From a virus (taxonomy: Duplodnaviria > Caudoviricetes): a stretch of DNA of 64,000 nt. The DNA is taken from the IMG/VR virus record IMGVR_UViG_3300025087_000034, one strand, 5' to 3'. Position 1 is the first letter of the stretch; each line of letters opens with the position of its first letter. The notes beneath the pieces were generated by a model that was given only the letters and a program-made list of their open reading frames with translations, did not search any database and was not told the origin of the DNA. A program made the position numbers and the translations under genes. This document shows, one piece after another, positions 2,214 to 52,576 of this stretch.

Positions 2214-2368
2214 TTTTAGGATTGGGGACTGTATTGGGTATTGCAGACGAGGCGGGGCTAAAGGTTCCATAGTTTTGGTAGTTGTGTTTTCAGACTATGA
2301 AATTGATGAGTATTATGAATTGCCATTTTTAGCAACTACGGATATTCCTATAGGGTTCCCTGTGTGTT

Positions 2369-3352
2369 TTGGCGGAAACGGAACCATATACCATAAAAAT
2401 TCTTCCGGCGGGTGAAAAAAATATGTTAAAATTACTAGATATACTAAAACTAATCCTGTCTAAAATATTGGTGCTTTTTAGTAAAAAAGATATAGTACAA
2501 CCTAAACAACCAGAACAAGCGGAAAAAGAACCAAAAGTTGAACCAGAACCAGAAGTAATTATAGAAGAAAAAGAAAGGGAGCTTCTTTCCCCTATACTAC
2601 ATAAAAGATATATTAGTCTTTATTGTATTGCTGATATGGTTTCTGGAAGTGTAAAATTGTTGGACAAACAAGATAATATAGTTGCGCTACTAACCAGCTA
2701 TTCGAAGTCTAGGTTAGACATGGAAGGTACTGGTCTACTCCCAGACGGGCGGGTTATAAATGTTGATGGTATGGCTTTGGGGGAAATGCGCTATAAGATA
2801 ATGGATTCTACTCGGCCATATGGGGTAGGTATATATGGTAAGGCATTAGAACCTTGGGTATCTCTTGCTCATCAGCTAAGCCAACTACTACAGTATAGCT
2901 TGTTTGGTAGGACTGTGGTAATACCCTCTATGCGGGGGTATGTTTTGCCAGACGGGAAGGTTCACACAGGAATTTTTAGGGTCGATGACACCGGGGGTGG
3001 CTTACATAAATGTCCGTATTCTAATGGTTTATGGCGCACGGGTAGCTCCAAGTCTGAATATGGGCAGTTTGACGTGTTCATTGGTGGACCAGAAAGCGTT
3101 TATAAGAAATTGTTAGGAAAGTGGGATAGTTATAAAGAAGTTTTTGTTATGCCTCGCGATTTAGACTCTCCTGATGGTATTCAAGAGTCCCTTAACTTAC
3201 TTCTTGACGCTGGCTTGAAGGTGGACGGTATAATAGGGCTCGCTTCAATGGCAGCCATAAATAGAATAAAGGCGATATTAGATCTTCCTCAAGATGGTTT
3301 TTGGTCTGACGATGTGAAACAGTATGTTTCAGACTGTTTAAATAGCTGGTAG
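2369..3352 (+). CDS. 3D-domain (MltA-like) cell-wall hydrolase with C-terminal peptidoglycan-binding-like segment; likely start ATG 2423
   Basis: FRVDDTGGG and QFDVFIG (3D Asp motifs); LKVDGIIG peptidoglycan-binding-like motif. Confidence 0.6.
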   Translation: MAETEPYTIKILPAGEKNMLKLLDILKLILSKILVLFSKKDIVQPKQPEQAEKEPKVEPEPEVIIEEKERELLSPILHKRYISLYCIADMVSGSVKLLDKQDNIVALLTSYSKSRLDMEGTGLLPDGRVINVDGMALGEMRYKIMDSTRPYGVGIYGKALEPWVSLAHQLSQLLQYSLFGRTVVIPSMRGYVLPDGKVHTGIFRVDDTGGGLHKCPYSNGLWRTGSSKSEYGQFDVFIGGPESVYKKLLGKWDSYKEVFVMPRDLDSPDGIQESLNLLLDAGLKVDGIIGLASMAAINRIKAILDLPQDGFWSDDVKQYVSDCLNSW

Positions 3353-3378
3353 TGTTTATGTTTTTGACTAGTTGAGGT

Positions 3379-4641
3379 TTGGATATGTTAAAAAAGTTTT
3401 TCTATGAAAATGTTAAACAAGTTTTTAAGGATAGGGGTTATACACTAATTAGCAAAGAGTATATAAATAGTCGTACAAAGTTGGGCTATGAATGCCCGAA
3501 AGGCCATTTAGGATCTATGACTTATAGTCATTTTCAACAGGGAAGTAGTTGCCCTGTTTGTTCTATTGAGAATAGCAAGCTTTCCTATGAAGAAGTTAAG
3601 AGGGCCTTTGATGATAGGAGCTATACGTTACTTAGTAAAGAGTATACAAATAAAACTATTAAGTTAGACTATGAGTGCCCAAAAGGTCACTTGGGGTCTA
3701 TGACTTATGGTAATTTTCAACAGGGAAATAGTTGCCCTGTTTGTTCTATTGAGAATAGCAAGCTTTCTTACGACGATGTTAAGAAAGTTTTTAGAGATAG
3801 GGGCTATATCTTACGCAGTAAGGAGTATGTAAATAGCCAAACTAAATTAGACTATGAGTGCCCAAAAGGTCACTTGGGGTCTATGACTTATGGTAATTTT
3901 TATCAGAAACACGCCTGCCTTGTTTGTTTTATTGAGAATAGCAGGCTTTCCTATGAAGAAGTTAAGAGGGCCTTTGATGATAGAGGTTATACACTACTTA
4001 GTAAAGAGTATGTGAATGTCCAAACTAAGTTAGACTATATATGCCCAAAAGGTCACCTAGGATCGATGACCTATGGTAACTTTCATCAAGGAAAGGGCTG
4101 CCCTATTTGTAACATAGAGAATAGCAAGCTTTCCTATGAAGAAGTTAAGAGAGCCTTTGACGGTAGAGGTTATACCTTGCTTAGCAAGGAGTATGTAAAT
4201 GCTGGCGCTAAGTTAGACTATAGGTGCCCTAAGGGTCATTTGGGGTCTATGATTTATAGTCATTTTCAACAGGGAAGTGACTGTCCTATTTGTTCAGATA
4301 GCTCTCCTGTTTCTAAAATTTCCCAAAAATGGCTAGCTTCCTTAGGGCTATCGTCGGAGATGGGAATTAGTAGGGAAGTTAGTTTGAAAATAGGGGATAA
4401 CAGGTTTAAGGTAGATGGTTTTGATCTTTCAACAAATACAGTTTATGAGTTTCTTGGGGACTATTGGCATGGGAACCCTAGTGTATTTGATCCTAATGAA
4501 GTGAACAAAAATAATAAAAAGACTTTTGGCCGGCTTTACCAAGAAACCTTGGAAAGAATTCACCTCTTAGAAGAAGCAGAGTACAATGTGGTTTATATTT
4601 GGGAGAAAGATTTTTTAGAAGGAAAGGGGTGTTGTAGTTAA
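3379..4641 (+). CDS. Zinc-ribbon repeat protein with C-terminal Vsr-like (PD-(D/E)xK) endonuclease
   Basis: Five 61-aa CPKGH...CPxC repeats; C-terminal VDGFD..NTVYEFLGDYWHG. Confidence 0.75.
   Translation: MDMLKKFFYENVKQVFKDRGYTLISKEYINSRTKLGYECPKGHLGSMTYSHFQQGSSCPVCSIENSKLSYEEVKRAFDDRSYTLLSKEYTNKTIKLDYECPKGHLGSMTYGNFQQGNSCPVCSIENSKLSYDDVKKVFRDRGYILRSKEYVNSQTKLDYECPKGHLGSMTYGNFYQKHACLVCFIENSRLSYEEVKRAFDDRGYTLLSKEYVNVQTKLDYICPKGHLGSMTYGNFHQGKGCPICNIENSKLSYEEVKRAFDGRGYTLLSKEYVNAGAKLDYRCPKGHLGSMIYSHFQQGSDCPICSDSSPVSKISQKWLASLGLSSEMGISREVSLKIGDNRFKVDGFDLSTNTVYEFLGDYWHGNPSVFDPNEVNKNNKKTFGRLYQETLERIHLLEEAEYNVVYIWEKDFLEGKGCCS
3430..4300 (+). repeat. Five tandem 183-bp coding repeats
   Basis: Units start at 3430, 3613 and onward; DRGYTLLSKEY..KLDYECPKGHLGSMTY is repeated. 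Confidence 0.9.
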
Positions 4642-6095: not shown

Positions 6096-8027
6096 ATGTC
6101 AAAATACGAGGTCGTTGAACGTCTTTGGGAATCTGCTGGATTTAATATCACAATACTACAAGTACCGCCAGACAAAATAGACGACAAACTGGCAATATTG
6201 TCAGATGGAAGTGGTTTATTAACTTCTTTTATGTATAACAGATTCTTGTTTAATACTTGTATTGTTGATCCCAGTAAGGTGTGGCCTTTCATGGGCAGCT
6301 TATCTGAAAATACTGACCTTGTTGTTAGTGCAGTTATGGATTTAAAGTCTCTGATTATTGAAGCTAATCCCTTACTTGATCCAAGAATATTGATAATAAA
6401 TGATGAAAATATAATAAGACTCCCAAATCAAGGTGACACGACCTCGACAGCTCGGCTACTAATAAACAATCCTCGTTGGGATGATACGAACGTAGAATCA
6501 GATGATGAGGAAGATATTGATAATTTCTTTTCTAATGCCGAGCCACCGAGGCTGCCTTTAAATGTAAATCCCAGTATTCCTTGGGCAGAAAAATTGGAAC
6601 TCAAGGAGTGGTCAACTACTGGTCTGGTTGTGTTAGTACTTAAATGTTCTGTTGACGATATTCCTGAAGTTTTTAAGGATAAGTATTCCTTTGCTAATGA
6701 TGATGGTGGTTATGAGGCATACAGATTATTCATTGTGGCAAAGACAGTAGCAGATTTTGCTGCTATGTTTCAACATTTGGATGAAATGGGTATAACAAAG
6801 AAAAACTCGCCCAAAGAATTAGTACGACAACTATATGAACTAGTTATAGAAGAAAATCCATTTCTAGCCTGGGAAAGTGTAGATTTGGATAAGGTAAAGA
6901 GGGCGGTAATAGCTAAATATGGTAAGCAGCAAAAACCGCATCTGAACAAGTTTAGTAAGGATAGTGTAAAAGGGGATAAGAATACTGAAACAAAGAAACA
7001 AGCAAGGTTAAGTAAAGATTTTTATAGGGAATTTTCCGATGTATCAGAAGAAGAGGTAAATACTTTAGCGGAAAGAATAAAACAAGAAGTAATAGGACAG
7101 GACCCTGTTATAGAAGAAATAGTAGATTCTATAAAACTAGCCAAATGTGGGTTTAAAGAAGAAGGTACACCTATTGCTACTTTCTTGTTAACTGGTGAAT
7201 CCGGTGTTGGTAAAACTCATTGTGCCAAAATGTTGGCTAAATATTTAACAGGTGATGAACATAATTTAGTTAGGGTGGATTGTTCCGAATATAGTCATAG
7301 CCACGAGATTTCAAAGCTTATAGGAAGTCCCAATGGTTATATCGGGTCTTCCGACACTACCAAGTTTTTTGAAATGATGACGAAAAGTCCATTTAGCGTG
7401 GTTTTATTTGATGAACTGGAAAAAAGTCATTCCAAACTCCATGACCTGCTGCTTCAAGCTATAGATGAGGGTCATCTCACAAACGGTAAGTCAGAAACGG
7501 TGTCCTTTGGTCAGGCTATTTTCTTGTTCACTTCTAATATAGGGGTTCAAGAAGTAAAGAGTGTTGGGAGCAGAATCGGTATAGGGGATGGTGCCGTAGT
7601 AACAAGGGATAAGAGGGCGGCTGCTATAACTGAAGCGGTAAAAGATAAATTTAAACCGGAATTCATTGGTAGGTTAGACGGTGTTCTTACCTTTGACGTT
7701 CTAAATAAGGATTCTTGTATGAGAATAGTAGACCTTCAGTTTAATAGGGTAAATGAGTTATTAGCAAAAAAGGACATAAGGATAGAGTATGACGAAGCTG
7801 TGAAGGAGTACATTTATAGTAGAGGATTCAAGAAGGGTTATGGTGCCCGTCCTCTGAAGAGGGTGGTGCGAAAAGAAGTGTTTCTTCCTGTTTCTAAACT
7901 GTTGTTGGAACAAAAGTTGTCTTCTAAGGTAGTTGTAAAGGTAGGTATTAGCGAAGACAAGTTAACCTTTAGTGTAGAAGGGAAAAAATCTAAGAAGAAA
8001 AAGAAGGAGGCTGCAAAAATAGAGTAA
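6096..8027 (+). CDS. Clp-family AAA+ ATPase with one ClpA/B/C D2-type module and a novel ~300-aa N-terminus
   Basis: Walker A GESGVGKT, pore loop GSPNGYIG, Walker B VVLFDELEK, FTSNIG...IGI, FKPEFIGRLD, YGARPLKR. Confidence 0.9.
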   Translation: MSKYEVVERLWESAGFNITILQVPPDKIDDKLAILSDGSGLLTSFMYNRFLFNTCIVDPSKVWPFMGSLSENTDLVVSAVMDLKSLIIEANPLLDPRILIINDENIIRLPNQGDTTSTARLLINNPRWDDTNVESDDEEDIDNFFSNAEPPRLPLNVNPSIPWAEKLELKEWSTTGLVVLVLKCSVDDIPEVFKDKYSFANDDGGYEAYRLFIVAKTVADFAAMFQHLDEMGITKKNSPKELVRQLYELVIEENPFLAWESVDLDKVKRAVIAKYGKQQKPHLNKFSKDSVKGDKNTETKKQARLSKDFYREFSDVSEEEVNTLAERIKQEVIGQDPVIEEIVDSIKLAKCGFKEEGTPIATFLLTGESGVGKTHCAKMLAKYLTGDEHNLVRVDCSEYSHSHEISKLIGSPNGYIGSSDTTKFFEMMTKSPFSVVLFDELEKSHSKLHDLLLQAIDEGHLTNGKSETVSFGQAIFLFTSNIGVQEVKSVGSRIGIGDGAVVTRDKRAAAITEAVKDKFKPEFIGRLDGVLTFDVLNKDSCMRIVDLQFNRVNELLAKKDIRIEYDEAVKEYIYSRGFKKGYGARPLKRVVRKEVFLPVSKLLLEQKLSSKVVVKVGISEDKLTFSVEGKKSKKKKKEAAKIE

Positions 8028-8036
8028 AAAACGAAG

Positions 8037-9422
8037 ATGGCAGTAAAAAATATAAGTAAAAACCACTTAATATTTGAAGTATTTCCTTGGCTTAGGAAAT
8101 GGGTAGACTGGGAAGCCAACAAAGAGGGGCTAGAAGACCTATCGTGTAGAAGTAAATACAGAATTTCTTTAAGATGCCCTGTGTGTGGCTACAGACTTAA
8201 ATATACAGTGTCAATGCTGAAAGAGTTGGTCCATAATTTAGAGTGTAGACGATGTAATAGTTTAGGTATAAAAAGGCCAGACCTTCTTAAATATTGGGAT
8301 TATAAAGCTAATATGTTAGACCCTTTTATAATTTCTCCTGGGTCTCATAAGACGGCTAATTGGAAATGTGAAAAATGTGGGTACAGTTGGACAAAAATAA
8401 TTAGGTATATGTCTTCCTTTACGTATTGCCCACGGTGTGAGTTTCCTGGTCATCATAGCAACCTGTTTGTAAACAGCGGTTCTGAAAATATAAGATTATG
8501 GGACTTGGAAAATAATAATATTGATATAGGTAGCGTAACAAAAAGGAATAAAGATAAACGGTACTGGAGGTGTCCTGATTGCAACCATAGGTGGGGGGCT
8601 TCCATAAGTACAATGTGCCTGCTCCCAGGATGCCCTTATTGTAAGGGGTTAAGTAAGCGTATTAGTAGGCTGGGCAATAAGACTAATAATAGTCTAGCAT
8701 TTTGTTTTCCGGATATAGCAGAGGAATTTTTAAGCGAGGAAAACGGTATAACACCAGACAGGGTATCCAAGTATTCGAATAAAAAGTATATGTGGCGGTG
8801 TAGAGTTTGTGGGGGTAAGTGGGAATCTTTTGTTTATAATAGAATAAGAAACCATGGGTGTCCCTATTGTAATAACCAGCTTCCTACAGAGACGAATAAT
8901 TTGGCCGTTCTTAAACCTGAATTGTTGTTGGAATTTAGTAGTAAAAACAATAAAAGACCCGAAGAATATATGGCACACACAAATAAAAAAGTTTGGTGGG
9001 AATGCCCCGTGTGCGATTTTGAATATTTAATGCGTGTTCATGACAAGACGAGAATAGACGGTAAGGCCTGTGGGTGCCCTCGTTGTGCTATAGGCATACA
9101 CGTTTCTAAGTCAGGAGCCACTTGGTTAGATAGTCTGAATATTAGTAAAGAATATAGAGAAAAGAAAATATATTATCAAGAAGGTACTTTAAAGTTCTAT
9201 AGGGTTGACGCTTTAGTAGGTAATACTGTGTATGAGTTTTTGGGTGACTTTTGGCATGGTAATCCTTCTATATATGCCGAAAATAGACCTAATAAAAAAC
9301 TGGGGGTGTCTTTTGGGGAATTATACGGCGAGTGGTTAAAGAGAAAAGAAATTTTAGAAAATTTAGGCTATATGGTTGTTTATGTATGGGAATCTGACTT
9401 CAAAAAGGGACAAGAACTATGA
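8037..9422 (+). CDS. Zinc-ribbon (treble-clef) repeat protein with C-terminal Vsr-like endonuclease
   Basis: Repeated W-x-C-x2-C..H..CPxC units; C-terminal VDAL..NTVYEFLGDFWHG, paralogous to the 3379 gene. Confidence 0.75.
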   Translation: MAVKNISKNHLIFEVFPWLRKWVDWEANKEGLEDLSCRSKYRISLRCPVCGYRLKYTVSMLKELVHNLECRRCNSLGIKRPDLLKYWDYKANMLDPFIISPGSHKTANWKCEKCGYSWTKIIRYMSSFTYCPRCEFPGHHSNLFVNSGSENIRLWDLENNNIDIGSVTKRNKDKRYWRCPDCNHRWGASISTMCLLPGCPYCKGLSKRISRLGNKTNNSLAFCFPDIAEEFLSEENGITPDRVSKYSNKKYMWRCRVCGGKWESFVYNRIRNHGCPYCNNQLPTETNNLAVLKPELLLEFSSKNNKRPEEYMAHTNKKVWWECPVCDFEYLMRVHDKTRIDGKACGCPRCAIGIHVSKSGATWLDSLNISKEYREKKIYYQEGTLKFYRVDALVGNTVYEFLGDFWHGNPSIYAENRPNKKLGVSFGELYGEWLKRKEILENLGYMVVYVWESDFKKGQEL

Positions 9423-10903: not shown

Positions 10904-11548
10904 GTGAAAAAAATAGAGGTTAAAAACAACAAGAAGAGGTGTTTTATGTTTCAACCAGGTGAAAACATTTCAGTCCCTTATGTATTAGATAATAAAGGAC
11001 AAGATAGAGTTTTTGACCTCTGGTCAAGACTTAATCAGGATAGAATAATTTTTCTGGGAGACAGAATAAATGACCATGTAGCTAATATTGTCGTAGCTCA
11101 AATGCTATATTTAGAGTCACAAAACCACGATGCTCCTATTTACCTTTATATAAATAGTCCCGGAGGTATTGTTACGAGTGGTTACGCTATTTTAGATGCT
11201 ATGAATTACATTACTCCAGAGGTGCACTGTACTTGTGTGGGACAAGCCTGTTCAATGGGGGCGGTTCTATTGGCTGCGGGGTCAAAAAGGTTTGCGCTTC
11301 CTAATAGTACAATTATGATACATCAGCCCTCCGGCGGTTTTTCCGGTCAAAGTACTGATATGCAAATACATGCAAATTATATACAAAAAATGAAAGAAAC
11401 CTTAACCAAGATAATGGCAGAAAATACAGGCCAATCATATGAAAAGGTCTATGCTGATATGGAACGAGACAACTTTATGAGTGCAGAAGAAGCTAAAGAG
11501 TATGGGATCGTTGATGAGGTCGTCTATAAGAGGCCGGTTATAGATTAA
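10904..11548 (+). CDS. clpP: ATP-dependent Clp protease proteolytic subunit; likely start ATG 10943
   Basis: [14 protein letters not shown] (Ser), IMIHQP (His), [11 protein letters not shown] (Asp): full triad. Confidence 0.97.
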
Positions 11549-23774: not shown

Positions 23775-24848
23775 TCAATTTTGTGATTTCTGGCTTCTGG
23801 AGGCCACAACCGTTTGAATTCTATTTTCGAAATCCCTCTGTTTTTGTGTTATCGGAGCCACTTCCCTACCAAGTCTATCAGCCTGCCTAAGAATAAATAG
23901 TGGAAACAAACTCAAATTATTCATGTCTTCCAACTTTAGATTCACCCTCTCAACAAAGCGCATAACCGTAGAATCTTTCCATTTTCTATCATATTGATAC
24001 ATATGATTAGATACCAGATGATATATAATTTTTCCTTCGTCAGAGTTGTGCAATTCAAGTCTATTTAAGATATTGGCTACTAATTTAGATCCCAAGACTT
24101 CGTGTTTATGAAAGGTGGCCCCTTTTTCATTTTTCCCCTTTGTACCTGGTTTTCCAACATCGTGTACTAGAGCAGCAAATTTTATAGTGTAATCGTTCGT
24201 AGGGCACAAGTCACAGGCCATAAGACAATGGTCATATACAGTGAACTTGTGGTACAGTTCATTTTGTGTAATGCCAAAGCAATTAGATAATTCAGGGAGA
24301 ATAATATCTAGAGCCCCCACAAGCCTTAAAAACTCTATTCCTGTCGAGGGTTTTGTTGATTTTATTAGTCTCTTTAGTTCTCTCCATATAAATCTACCAG
24401 GAGTCTGTGCTAACTTTGCTACATTCTTACTTATAGAGAGGAGTAGCCTTTCTGATATAGAGAAACCGGTTTCCGCTTTCAAAGCTGCGGCTCTGATTAT
24501 AAGTTGTGGTTTCTCAGCTAACTCCTGTTCTGGTTCGTGTACTGTTGTTATTCTTTTTTTCTCTATATCTTTCATAGCTCCATAAGGGTCTATTATCTCC
24601 TTGGTTGAGGAGTTCAAGAGAAGGCCATCTAGTTTAAACGGCTGTATGGGTAGATACTTTGTTGGAGTACAGTGAGTTACGTGTTTTACTTTTATCCCTT
24701 TTGCAATTATTTGTTCCGAGGTGTCAAAAGAAACTAGGTAGACTTCTTCTGGAGTGAGGTCCATAATTAGCAAACATGCAGTGGTATAACTGAAATACAG
24801 GTTCTTGTTTCGGTATCCTTGTACCAGAGGTATAAGGCTATTTGTCAT
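23775..24848 (-). CDS. CCA-adding enzyme/poly(A) polymerase homolog with degenerate NTase head and intact HD domain
   Basis: DPYGAMKDI and PGRFIWRELKRL body motifs, VYDHC..ALVHDVGKP..FHKHE HD motifs; no GGxVRD, DxD or RRD. Confidence 0.8.
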   Translation of the reverse strand: MTNSLIPLVQGYRNKNLYFSYTTACLLIMDLTPEEVYLVSFDTSEQIIAKGIKVKHVTHCTPTKYLPIQPFKLDGLLLNSSTKEIIDPYGAMKDIEKKRITTVHEPEQELAEKPQLIIRAAALKAETGFSISERLLLSISKNVAKLAQTPGRFIWRELKRLIKSTKPSTGIEFLRLVGALDIILPELSNCFGITQNELYHKFTVYDHCLMACDLCPTNDYTIKFAALVHDVGKPGTKGKNEKGATFHKHEVLGSKLVANILNRLELHNSDEGKIIYHLVSNHMYQYDRKWKDSTVMRFVERVNLKLEDMNNLSLFPLFILRQADRLGREVAPITQKQRDFENRIQTVVASRSQKSQN

Positions 24849-45691: not shown

Positions 45692-45778
45692 TGGCGAGGG
45701 TAGGACTCGAACCTACGTTGTTTTCCCTAAGGGTAACAGATTTACAGTCTGTCGCCTTCGCCGCTAGGCTACCTCGCC
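45692..45778 (-). tRNA. tRNA-Tyr(GTA); CCA not encoded
   Basis: GGCGAGG/CCTCGCC acceptor, ACAGA-CTGTAAA-TCTGT anticodon arm, long variable arm, GTAGG-TTCGAGT-CCTAC. Confidence 0.95.
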
Positions 45779-49812: not shown

Positions 49813-50199
49813 TTAACTTCTCCAGCCTTTATAGTATGTTACCCACTCAACTTTGTTCTTGTTGGTAACCCGGTCCATAAAGCCACAAGCAGGACATAAC
49901 CACCCAGGGTGATATTCTGTGTGGAAGGGAAAACAATAGCCAGAAAGAAAGAACTCGGATGCTGCTACCATTTTTTGCGAGCCACAAGAAACACACTCTT
50001 TAAAACTATTATCAAATCCATAAATTAAGGAATTTGTTTTAGCTTCAAACTTTTGTGCCCACAAAAACCTATTCCTATGTTTGGTTACTATTTCAAGGCC
50101 ACATTCTGTACATACCCAACCAGGCACTCTTTCTGTTCCTATTTTAAGTTTAATATCTATTATTTTTGCGACCAAATCTCTTCCACACACACAATTCAT
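49813..50199 (-). CDS. Double zinc-ribbon protein (YgiT/MqsA-like ribbons)
   Basis: CVCG..WVCTECG and CVSCG..WLCPACG. Confidence 0.5.
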   Translation of the reverse strand: MNCVCGRDLVAKIIDIKLKIGTERVPGWVCTECGLEIVTKHRNRFLWAQKFEAKTNSLIYGFDNSFKECVSCGSQKMVAASEFFLSGYCFPFHTEYHPGWLCPACGFMDRVTNKNKVEWVTYYKGWRS

Positions 50200-50212
50200 C
50201 TCACCCTCCTAG

Positions 50213-50578
50213 TGGAGCCGCCGGGTATCGAGCCCGGGTCCATTGTATGCTCTGAAAATTTACCTTCTGCTACGGCTATCTTTGTCAAGAATTAAGTTCT
50301 TCCTATTTAGATAGGGGGGGACTTTACTTGACTTCATCCCCGTAAAACCTCTCTGCCTATAACTACCACTTGGTTGACAAGGCTGGTAGTAACCACCCCG
50401 TAGCTACTCTAGGCAGCCATACGAAGCTCGGGCTGCTTGGTTACCCTGGGGGTTCCGCCTAGCAAGTGCTTCGCGTAGTCTACAAGAGACTTGTCGGTTC
50501 GTTTTTGTTTTTCTATTTAAGGCATAGATGCCAGCCGGGTAAACTAACTTTACACCAATGTCGAATCTATTCGGCCCC
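50213..50578 (-). ncRNA. ssrA: tmRNA; predicted tag ORF 50510-50409 encoding KQKRTDKSLVDYAKHLLGGTPRVTKQPELRMAA
   Basis: 5' GGGGCCGAATAGATTCGAC, 3' GGACCCGGGCTCGATACCCGGCGGCTCCA, acceptor GGGGCCG/CGGCTCC with G3-U70, tag frame ends ...LRMAA-stop. Confidence 0.92.
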
Positions 50579-50584
50579 TTAAGT

Positions 50585-50824
50585 TTAAAGACCAGTAGAC
50601 CTAAATATATGCATACCTTTGTATTTTTTAGTTTCTTTCTCTACTATTTTAGTATTGATTCCTATTGGAAGACTAGCACAACTTCCCCAGTCCCTATAGA
50701 CCATATTTGTAGAATTACACCAAGGGCATTCTTCCGTAATAAATGAATAATAGTCTTGTTCCCACAGATCAAATTTGGGACAGCTTGGATTAGTACATTT
50801 GTATTCTATGTCAAAATTAGTCAT
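50585..50824 (-). CDS. Small zinc-ribbon protein
   Basis: CTNPSC...CPWC. Confidence 0.45.
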   Translation of the reverse strand: MTNFDIEYKCTNPSCPKFDLWEQDYYSFITEECPWCNSTNMVYRDWGSCASLPIGINTKIVEKETKKYKGMHIFRSTGL

Positions 50825-52039: not shown

Positions 52040-52576
52040 TTAATATTCAATATTGTATTTGTCAAACTCTAATAATATATCTTCTAATATTACAGGAAAG
52101 AAGTCCCACGCATCAACACCAACATTTATCAGCAAAGTGTTTTCTCCAACCCTCTGGGATTTCCATTGTTGGTGTACATGTCCACACAACCAAACTGAAT
52201 TGGATATTTGTGCCCATGCAGGGTCATGCACCATATAAATCTCAAGTTTTGTGGTCAGTGAAACCCTTAGAGAGGTGTGAACACTAAAAAATCCCATATC
52301 ATGATAAGAGAAAGGTTTGAATTTATCGTGATTACCCAATATTAGGTGTTTTTTGCCAGGTAAAGAACTAAAAAGTGATACAAACTTTTCTTGATTACTT
52401 GGTCCATCCATAGTTAGGTCACCCAAAAAATAGACCTCATCTTTATCTGTTACTGTAGTGTTATATTTTTCCAATATGTCTGTGTTCATATGGTGGATAT
52501 TTGAATAGGGTCTTCCACAGTATTCTATAATGTTTCTATGATACAAATGCCAATCTGAAGTAAAAAAGGTACTCAT
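52040..52576 (-). CDS. Phage-type metallophosphoesterase
   Basis: TSDWH, FLGD, LGNHD, CGHVH, INVGVD. Confidence 0.9.
   Translation of the reverse strand: MSTFFTSDWHLYHRNIIEYCGRPYSNIHHMNTDILEKYNTTVTDKDEVYFLGDLTMDGPSNQEKFVSLFSSLPGKKHLILGNHDKFKPFSYHDMGFFSVHTSLRVSLTTKLEIYMVHDPAWAQISNSVWLCGHVHQQWKSQRVGENTLLINVGVDAWDFFPVILEDILLEFDKYNIEY

Follow-up and report, generated by a model that had tools for sequence, protein, structure and literature searches.

A divergent phage tmRNA gene with a probable 28-codon tag in an uncultured groundwater jumbo phage

An uncultured jumbo phage from groundwater carries, by the evidence of its sequence, a genuine but divergent tmRNA gene of the one-piece type. Comparison with five homologues suggests that its tag is probably 28 codons long and begins on GAC, a G-initial codon. 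The stretch of DNA that was analysed, 64,000 nt in length and termed the window in what follows, is part of a 258,514-bp contig of this phage, whose sequence occurs in groundwater and soil metagenomes of six studies. The proteins of the phage are distant from those of known phages, and the best helicase matches are to Bacillus phages, at 27–32% identity. Coordinates of the features discussed are collected in Table 1.

A first-pass annotation had placed a phage tmRNA gene at this locus, and the search with the Rfam model RF00023 upholds it. With reporting by E-value, the match spans the whole model (positions 1–374), scores 46.2 bits (E 3.7e-17) and lies on the minus strand, at 50578..50210. 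The gathering cut-off of RF00023 is 47 bits, a curation device rather than a biological feature; relative L022 also scores 46.2 bits and relative L019 passes the cut-off with 51.1 bits (E from 1e-15 to 1e-17). At gathering thresholds Rfam reports only the tRNA in the window and no tmRNA, and ARAGORN reports only the tRNA-Tyr in the window, with nothing at 50100–50700. Of the checks that the first-pass annotation had proposed, Infernal gave a full-length match just under the cut-off and ARAGORN gave no call. In the Rfam alignment the posterior probability is near 1 across both termini. The alignment and the minimum free energy fold both have a D-loop-like GAUUCGAC and a T-arm, lack an anticodon arm, and are closed by a long helix 2.

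The termini were read correctly from the sequence alone. The acceptor stem GGGGCCG/CGGCUCC includes the wobble pair G3·U70 and is followed by discriminator A, and the six RNAs all retain the seven acceptor pairs, G3·U70 and the discriminator A, pairs 2, 5 and 6 having changed in a compensatory way. The T-loop CTCGATA, as first reported, lies on a T-stem of five pairs, and its first position, equivalent to tRNA position 54, is C. Position 54 is U in tRNAs and most tmRNAs; within the lineage of six, C54 is peculiar to the window RNA. The T-arm word GGGCTCGATACCC is found at 17 other tmRNA or tmRNA-like loci (three IMG/VR viral and 14 JGI metagenome loci), which makes C54 a recurrent viable variant. 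The 3′ end reads ACTA rather than ACCA, as had been noted: the limit originally given, 50213, is the discriminator A, and the encoded CTA follows it. None of the six lineage RNAs has an encoded CCA (tails CUA, ACA, CAC, AAC, CAA and CAA), nor do the tRNA-Tyr of the window and the tmRNAs of phages Bxz1 and G; in the tmRNA database the CCA position is described as ‘not always encoding CCA’ (PMC11915505).

Relatives were found by way of a phosphoesterase gene (52040–52576) 1.5 kb upstream of the tmRNA gene, by examining the contigs of its closest homologues (51–59% identity). Five metagenome contigs carry a homologous tmRNA gene in synteny, 1.5–2.1 kb downstream of the same phosphoesterase gene, with nhmmer E-values of 1e-94 to 1e-103; the aquifer samples that yielded the window phage are also the source of some of these contigs. 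The window tmRNA, at 369 nt, is shorter than its intron-free relatives (415–509 nt), and its sequence is identical across the three contigs compared, from several samples. A blastn search of 50,697 phage records with the locus found no match. In IMG/VR neither tmRNA terminus had an exact-word match, and queries with the mini RNA polymerase and with the downstream ORF brought up no relatives. By nhmmer the lineage tmRNA was absent from 80 IMG/VR loci with the neighbouring phosphoesterase. Scans with words from the N-terminal block of the tag (the N-block, described below) gave three chance matches without a tmRNA in genome contigs and none in IMG/VR, and scans with T-arm words found other tmRNA-like RNAs and no close relatives.

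Table 1. Features of the window and tmRNA genes of the five relatives
Feature	Coordinates	Strand	Remarks
Single-ring Clp-type ATPase	6096..8027	+	
Phage ClpP	10904..11548	+	Pfam CLP_protease, E 4e-76; NCBIfam NF001368, 278 bits (cut-off 249)
CCA-enzyme-like HD protein	23775–24848	−	~25 kb from the tmRNA gene
tRNA-Tyr(GUA)	45692..45778	−	No encoded CCA
Downstream orphan ORF	49813..50199	−	128 aa; GGAGG ribosome-binding site directly after the tmRNA tail
One-piece tmRNA gene	50210..50578	−	369 nt including the encoded tail CTA
T-arm, acceptor 3′ strand, discriminator A and tail CUA	50210..50237	−	T-arm CCGGG-CUCGAUA-CCCGG
3′ pseudoknot	50284..50341	−	GGGGA...UCCCC hairpin; loop GUCAAG pairs with downstream CUUGAC
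Tag stop TAG	50409..50411	−	Directly after the helix 5 hairpin (50413–50436)
Predicted tag reading frame DKSLVDYAKHLLGGTPRVTKQPELRMAA	50412..50495	−	28 codons from GAC; by homology
A-rich single-stranded spacer AAAACAAAAACGAACC	50496..50511	−	Pseudoknot 1 to the resume codon; A at −4, G at −5
Pseudoknot 1, GGCA-UCUA-UGCC-UUAAA-UAGA	50512..50532	−	tmRNA nt 47–67; stem 1 GGCA/UGCC
Acceptor stem 5′ strand GGGGCCG	50572..50578	−	Contains G3 of G3·U70; pairs with CGGCTCC at 50214–50220
Upstream ORF	50585..50824	−	79 aa, no family; stop codon 6 nt before the tmRNA 5′ end
tmRNA of L019	5989–6497		
tmRNA of L022	8569–9063		
tmRNA of L018	7057–7797		
tmRNA of L023 (= L024)	2231–2645		
tmRNA of L110	2730–3437		

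The helices of these RNAs covary. Stem 2 of pseudoknot 1 (PK1), UCUA/UAGA in the window, is replaced among the relatives by UUCAC/GUGAA, GUUA/UAAC, UCCA/UGGA and CUCA/UGAG, and the Rfam alignment likewise puts UCUA/UAGA on the PK1 hairpin. In the 3′ pseudoknot both strands of the loop helix vary in all six RNAs (GUCAAG/CUUGAC, GCUAA/UUAGC, GCUAG/CUAGC, ACUAG/CUAGU, GUCAGA/UCUGAC and GUAGG/CCUAC). Since the acceptor stem, PK1 and the 3′ pseudoknot all show compensatory changes, the RNA is under structural selection and is not a relic.

Two of the five relatives have an insert of ~260–330 nt in the tmRNA T-loop (L018:7504-7767 and L110, about 3165-3415). In L018 the insert gives a full-length match to RF00028, the group I intron model, at 39 bits (cut-off 50; E 1e-8), and group I introns in the T-loop of tmRNA are known, mostly from Bacillota (PMC11915505). 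When the intron boundaries of L018 and L110 were sought by hand, no placement reconciled a U at −1, a terminal G and a canonical 7-nt T-loop.

The scans with the T-arm word also turned up RNAs of other kinds. Three other viral or metagenomic tmRNAs share the C54 T-arm (L003:1167-1483 and L011:799-1144, both on the minus strand, and L017, about 3575-4010, minus strand). Their frames, read by eye, have ~41–44 codons behind the canonical resume contexts AAUAACU-GAC, AAUAAUU-GGC and UUUAAAU-GCU, respectively, and long tags may be common in phage-borne tmRNAs; ARAGORN missed L003 and L017 and gave an implausible tag for L011. At the 3′ ends of the matches, L006, L013 and L016 contain RNAs of ~80 nt with little beyond the tRNA-like domain of tmRNA (GGGGCCGAGAAAGGUUUCGAC...GGACGCGGGCUCGAUACCCGCCGGCUCCACCA), preceded in L006 and L013 by tandem ~95-nt repeats; these RNAs resemble the domain-only tmRNA of mycobacteriophage DS6A (PMC4131195).

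The resume codon was assigned by homology among the six sequences. The spacer between PK1 and this codon is 13–16 nt long and its lengths take all residues modulo 3, leaving the frame unconserved; because the length varies by non-multiples of three, the spacer codons are not conserved as codons. A stands at −4 in six of six RNAs; in Escherichia coli the A at −4 (A86) is the main determinant of frame, and changes of U85 to C or G are tolerated (PMC2481249). The codon at the resume position is GAC in the window and GGC in L019, L022, L018 and L110. In L023 it is AGC (Ser; L023:2315-2317), so that a non-G resume codon is possible in the lineage, though not in the window RNA. The position corresponds to tmRNA nt 84 in the window and to nt 84–89 in five of the six RNAs; in L110 it is nt 104, owing to a hairpin inserted in PK1. 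Peptide similarity among the relatives begins at the GAC/GGC codon. Upstream of GCT GCC TAG the first in-frame stop is a TAA at 50519..50517, as the first-pass annotation had stated, and in-frame upstream stops set no bound on the resume codon.

From the GAC/GGC position the window frame runs without a stop for 28 codons, and those of the five relatives for 26, 31, 30, 33 and 30 codons. GCU GCN stop is kept in all six; the two remaining frames contain, between them, 3–6 stops in every RNA. The claim of an unusually long tag thus stands, at 28 codons versus the usual 10, and the length of 33 residues does not, as the GAC start gives 28. The N-block is DKSLVDYAKHLL in the window. A block of the type G-K/N-S-M-L-N-Y-F-A-K-F-L, with an end L-R-M/A-A-A, occurs in L110, L018 and L023; L019 and L022 have the related blocks GKALLNYVTDML and GKTTLLNRVTELL and the ends CALAA and RAMAA. 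The block is conserved as protein across the lineage, and the middle of the tag is variable. Over the first 13 codon columns of the six sequences, the extra states number 15/3/17 at codon positions 1/2/3 (P = 7e-4 for so few position-2 changes; chi-square P = 0.007). L019 and L022 differ by the synonymous third-position changes GTC/GTA, ACT/ACA, CTC/CTG and CTT/CTA, and both indels in the block are of whole codons. The only hairpin in the N-block, ACAAG-UCU-CUUGU, overlaps the proposed resume codon and occurs in the window RNA alone; the conservation of the block is therefore not accounted for by RNA structure.

Two other starts in the same frame were weighed against GAC. In one, which we consider unlikely, a functional tmRNA would resume far downstream on GGA (nt 123; 50456..50454) with a 15-residue tag, GTPRVTKQPELRMAA, leaving the upstream block untranslated. 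ARAGORN gives such a tag for L023, the only relative that it calls (17 residues, AGTKMTRVDAQPLRMAA, same frame, from gene nt 124); the GGA is preceded by C-U-A-G-G-C, with U at −5 and A at −4 (UA is at −5/−4 in the window, L018 and L023), and the distance from PK1 to U85 is uncritical in E. coli (PMC2481249). This start leaves unexplained the codon-type periodicity of the 13 preceding codon columns with their synonymous changes, the whole-codon indels and the total lack of in-frame stops in six RNAs, in a block that makes no conserved RNA helix. Moreover, L110, L019 and L022 have no A at −4 before any equivalent codon, and a 39-nt untranslated insert behind the canonical A-rich context ...AAUAACU-GGC-AAA would be unprecedented. 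The periodicity argues against the far-downstream start with a tag of normal length that the first-pass annotation had named as its own refutation. That annotation had itself placed the resume codon after ATAGAA, giving a non-G codon (AAA) and a 33-residue tag with the basic start KQKRT, a version that we regard as very improbable. The frame is indeed open from 50516, and there is a superficial likeness between UAGAA-AAA and UAGUC-GCA of E. coli, U standing at −5 and A at −4. The UAGA, however, is base-paired as the 3′ strand of PK1 stem 2, a helix that covaries in the six RNAs; AAA (nt 69) would lie 1 nt past the pseudoknot versus 13–16 nt in the lineage; and the five codons of KQKRT sit in PK1 and the spacer, upstream of the GAC codon (50495..50493) that is homologous to the resume codons of the relatives. 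With the AUAGAA placement unconfirmed, the 33-residue tag and the AAA codon are unconfirmed as well.

The tag read from GAC ends ...L-R-M-A-A before the stop, in agreement with the C-terminal Ala-Ala first reported. C-terminal Ala-Ala is a Clp-type degron, and Ala-Ala after a hydrophobic residue, the ssrA-type pattern, is what the window tag has. The phage encodes a ClpP of its own and a single-ring Clp-type ATPase of 643 residues, whose C-terminal half is a ClpA/ClpB-D2-type module (AAA_2 and ClpB_D2-small) with a GYIG pore loop and an IGI loop and whose N-domain (the first ~310 residues) is matched by only 12 metagenomic proteins. In the relative L132, genes for Rad52, the ATPase and ClpP follow one another in this order without gaps. 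In the window the ATPase and ClpP genes are ~2.9 kb apart with HNH endonuclease genes between them; one of these, the HNH/endonuclease gene at 8037-9422, has the look of a homing endonuclease inserted into an operon. A homologue of the ATPase, P0130, lies on a 3.3-kb contig of a metagenome-assembled genome labelled Candidatus Peribacteraceae; this contig may be a phage fragment binned in error, or else it points weakly to the host. The earlier proposal that the extra N-terminal part of the tag is a docking site keeps some footing as a hypothesis, for the N-block rather than for KQKRT. We give a low probability to its strongest form, a self-contained tag-and-destroy module in which the ATPase N-domain would read the N-block and a phage protease route would bypass or rival the host tmRNA-ClpXP.

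The tmRNA gene is fitted tightly between the stop codon of one ORF and the GGAGG of the next, and so must be excised from a longer transcript; no excess of sigma-70-type promoters was seen near it, and the downstream ORF has no homologue in the protein collection. Within ~11 kb are genes for two metallophosphoesterases, an Rnl-type RNA ligase, RtcB, a PP-loop ATPase and the tRNA-Tyr, a setting among RNA-repair and tRNA genes that points to a likely role in ribosome rescue during infection. The CCA-enzyme-like HD protein matches CCA nucleotidyltransferase models in the body and HD-domain part only (residues 80–312), and cannot be assumed to add CCA to the tmRNA or the tRNA-Tyr. No SmpB gene was seen within the 64,000-nt window of the 258-kb genome. 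No RNA run is among the sequencing runs that contain the locus, all of the sources being DNA contigs of the same phage.

We think it likely that the gene specifies a working tmRNA, which would act as follows. The RNA would be cut from a polycistronic minus-strand transcript, its 5′ end presumably by RNase P and its 3′ end by an endonuclease and then a CCA-adding enzyme. Through G3·U70 and A73 the RNA would receive alanine from AlaRS, and the charged RNA with SmpB would enter stalled ribosomes. Translation would resume on GAC, 16 nt past PK1 and with A at −4, and the stalled product would receive Ala plus the 28 encoded residues. The C-terminal Ala-Ala would serve as a Clp-type degron and the N-block most likely as a second recognition site, by analogy with the SspB site of E. 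coli or the Lon-directed tag of Mycoplasma. In this way the RNA would probably free ribosomes as mRNAs or tRNAs are cleaved in the course of infection, and clear the truncated products.

A different role for a transcribed RNA that enters ribosomes or binds SmpB is improbable in our judgement. It might act as a competitor of the host tmRNA, so that stalled products receive, in place of the host tag, a phage-specific one that is routed to the phage ATPase-ClpP or left undegraded, or it might titrate SmpB. The phage ClpP and the Clp ATPase with its lineage-specific N-domain, adjacent in L132, would suit a competitor, as would an N-block that is conserved and unlike known host tags; for titration there is the precedent of phage DS6A, whose tmRNA is approximately the tRNA-like domain only, and of a similar molecule that strongly inhibits tmRNA in E. 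coli (PMC4131195; PMC11915505). Against these roles, the window RNA retains a full mRNA-like domain, pseudoknots and the Ala-Ala end, as in ordinary tmRNAs. That the gene is a decaying, non-functional copy taken from a host is scarcely credible: the sub-threshold Rfam score, the silence of ARAGORN, the C54 T-loop, the missing CCA and the reduced length might be read as decay, but each helix tested is maintained by compensatory changes, six diverged genomes all have an unbroken tag frame, contigs from several samples have the identical sequence, and the missing CCA and the C54 T-arm recur in other tmRNAs.

There are precedents for long tags, for tmRNAs of phages and for tmRNA genes that lack CCA; the tags of this lineage reach or exceed known lengths, the modal tag length being 10 residues (PMC11915505). 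The tmRNA of the mycobacteriophage Bxz1 group (tmRNA Website; Hudson, Lau and Williams 2014, PMC4131195) is likewise a one-piece phage tmRNA without encoded CCA, with a 25-residue tag (by ARAGORN) and a place among translation-related RNA genes. It has no detectable sequence relationship to the window RNA, however, its tag is acidic and ends in ALV (MAA in the window), it is found by ARAGORN and scores above the Rfam cut-off (73.9 bits), and it lies within a tRNA array, whereas the window gene lies between protein genes. The tag of Bacillus subtilis is AGKTNSFNQNVALAA (PMC8767453). Three relatives share with it a G-K start after an A-rich spacer (AAUAACU in two, ACAACU in one), the lineage tags also end in hydrophobic-Ala-Ala, and two relatives have introns in the T-loop, which occur mostly in Bacillota (PMC11915505); the lineage tag differs in being twice as long with an extra conserved block, and the window RNA in its GAC resume codon, its C54 and its jumbo-phage origin. 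Mycoplasma tmRNA has a tag of similarly unusual length, 27 residues and directed to Lon (Gur and Sauer 2008, as cited in PMC8403727), the extra part of which is thought to hold a site for a particular AAA+ protease. The Mycoplasma case is cellular, with other tag ends and genomes without ClpXP, whereas the window tag keeps Ala-Ala and the phage supplies ClpP and a Clp ATPase. Huge phages of >200 kb from environmental metagenomes also carry tmRNA, with or without SmpB, in an expanded translation set (Al-Shayeb et al. 2020, PMC7162821); in that survey tmRNAs were assigned by ARAGORN, which misses the window gene and four of its five relatives, and tags were not discussed.

A whole lineage of jumbo-phage tmRNAs thus evades the usual tools, Rfam at threshold and ARAGORN, which calls one of the six and gives it a shortened tag. 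Surveys of phage translation genes that are based on ARAGORN will accordingly undercount. Second-site readers of tmRNA tags are known in SspB of proteobacteria and Lon of Mycoplasma, and six tags of two to three times the usual length, with a common N-block that evolves like protein, bear the signature of a second degron recognition site. The window phage and at least one relative with the same ATPase encode both ClpP and a Clp ATPase whose N-domain is private to its family; if the N-block is indeed read by that ATPase, phage tmRNA and phage protease might form a tag-writer and tag-reader pair.
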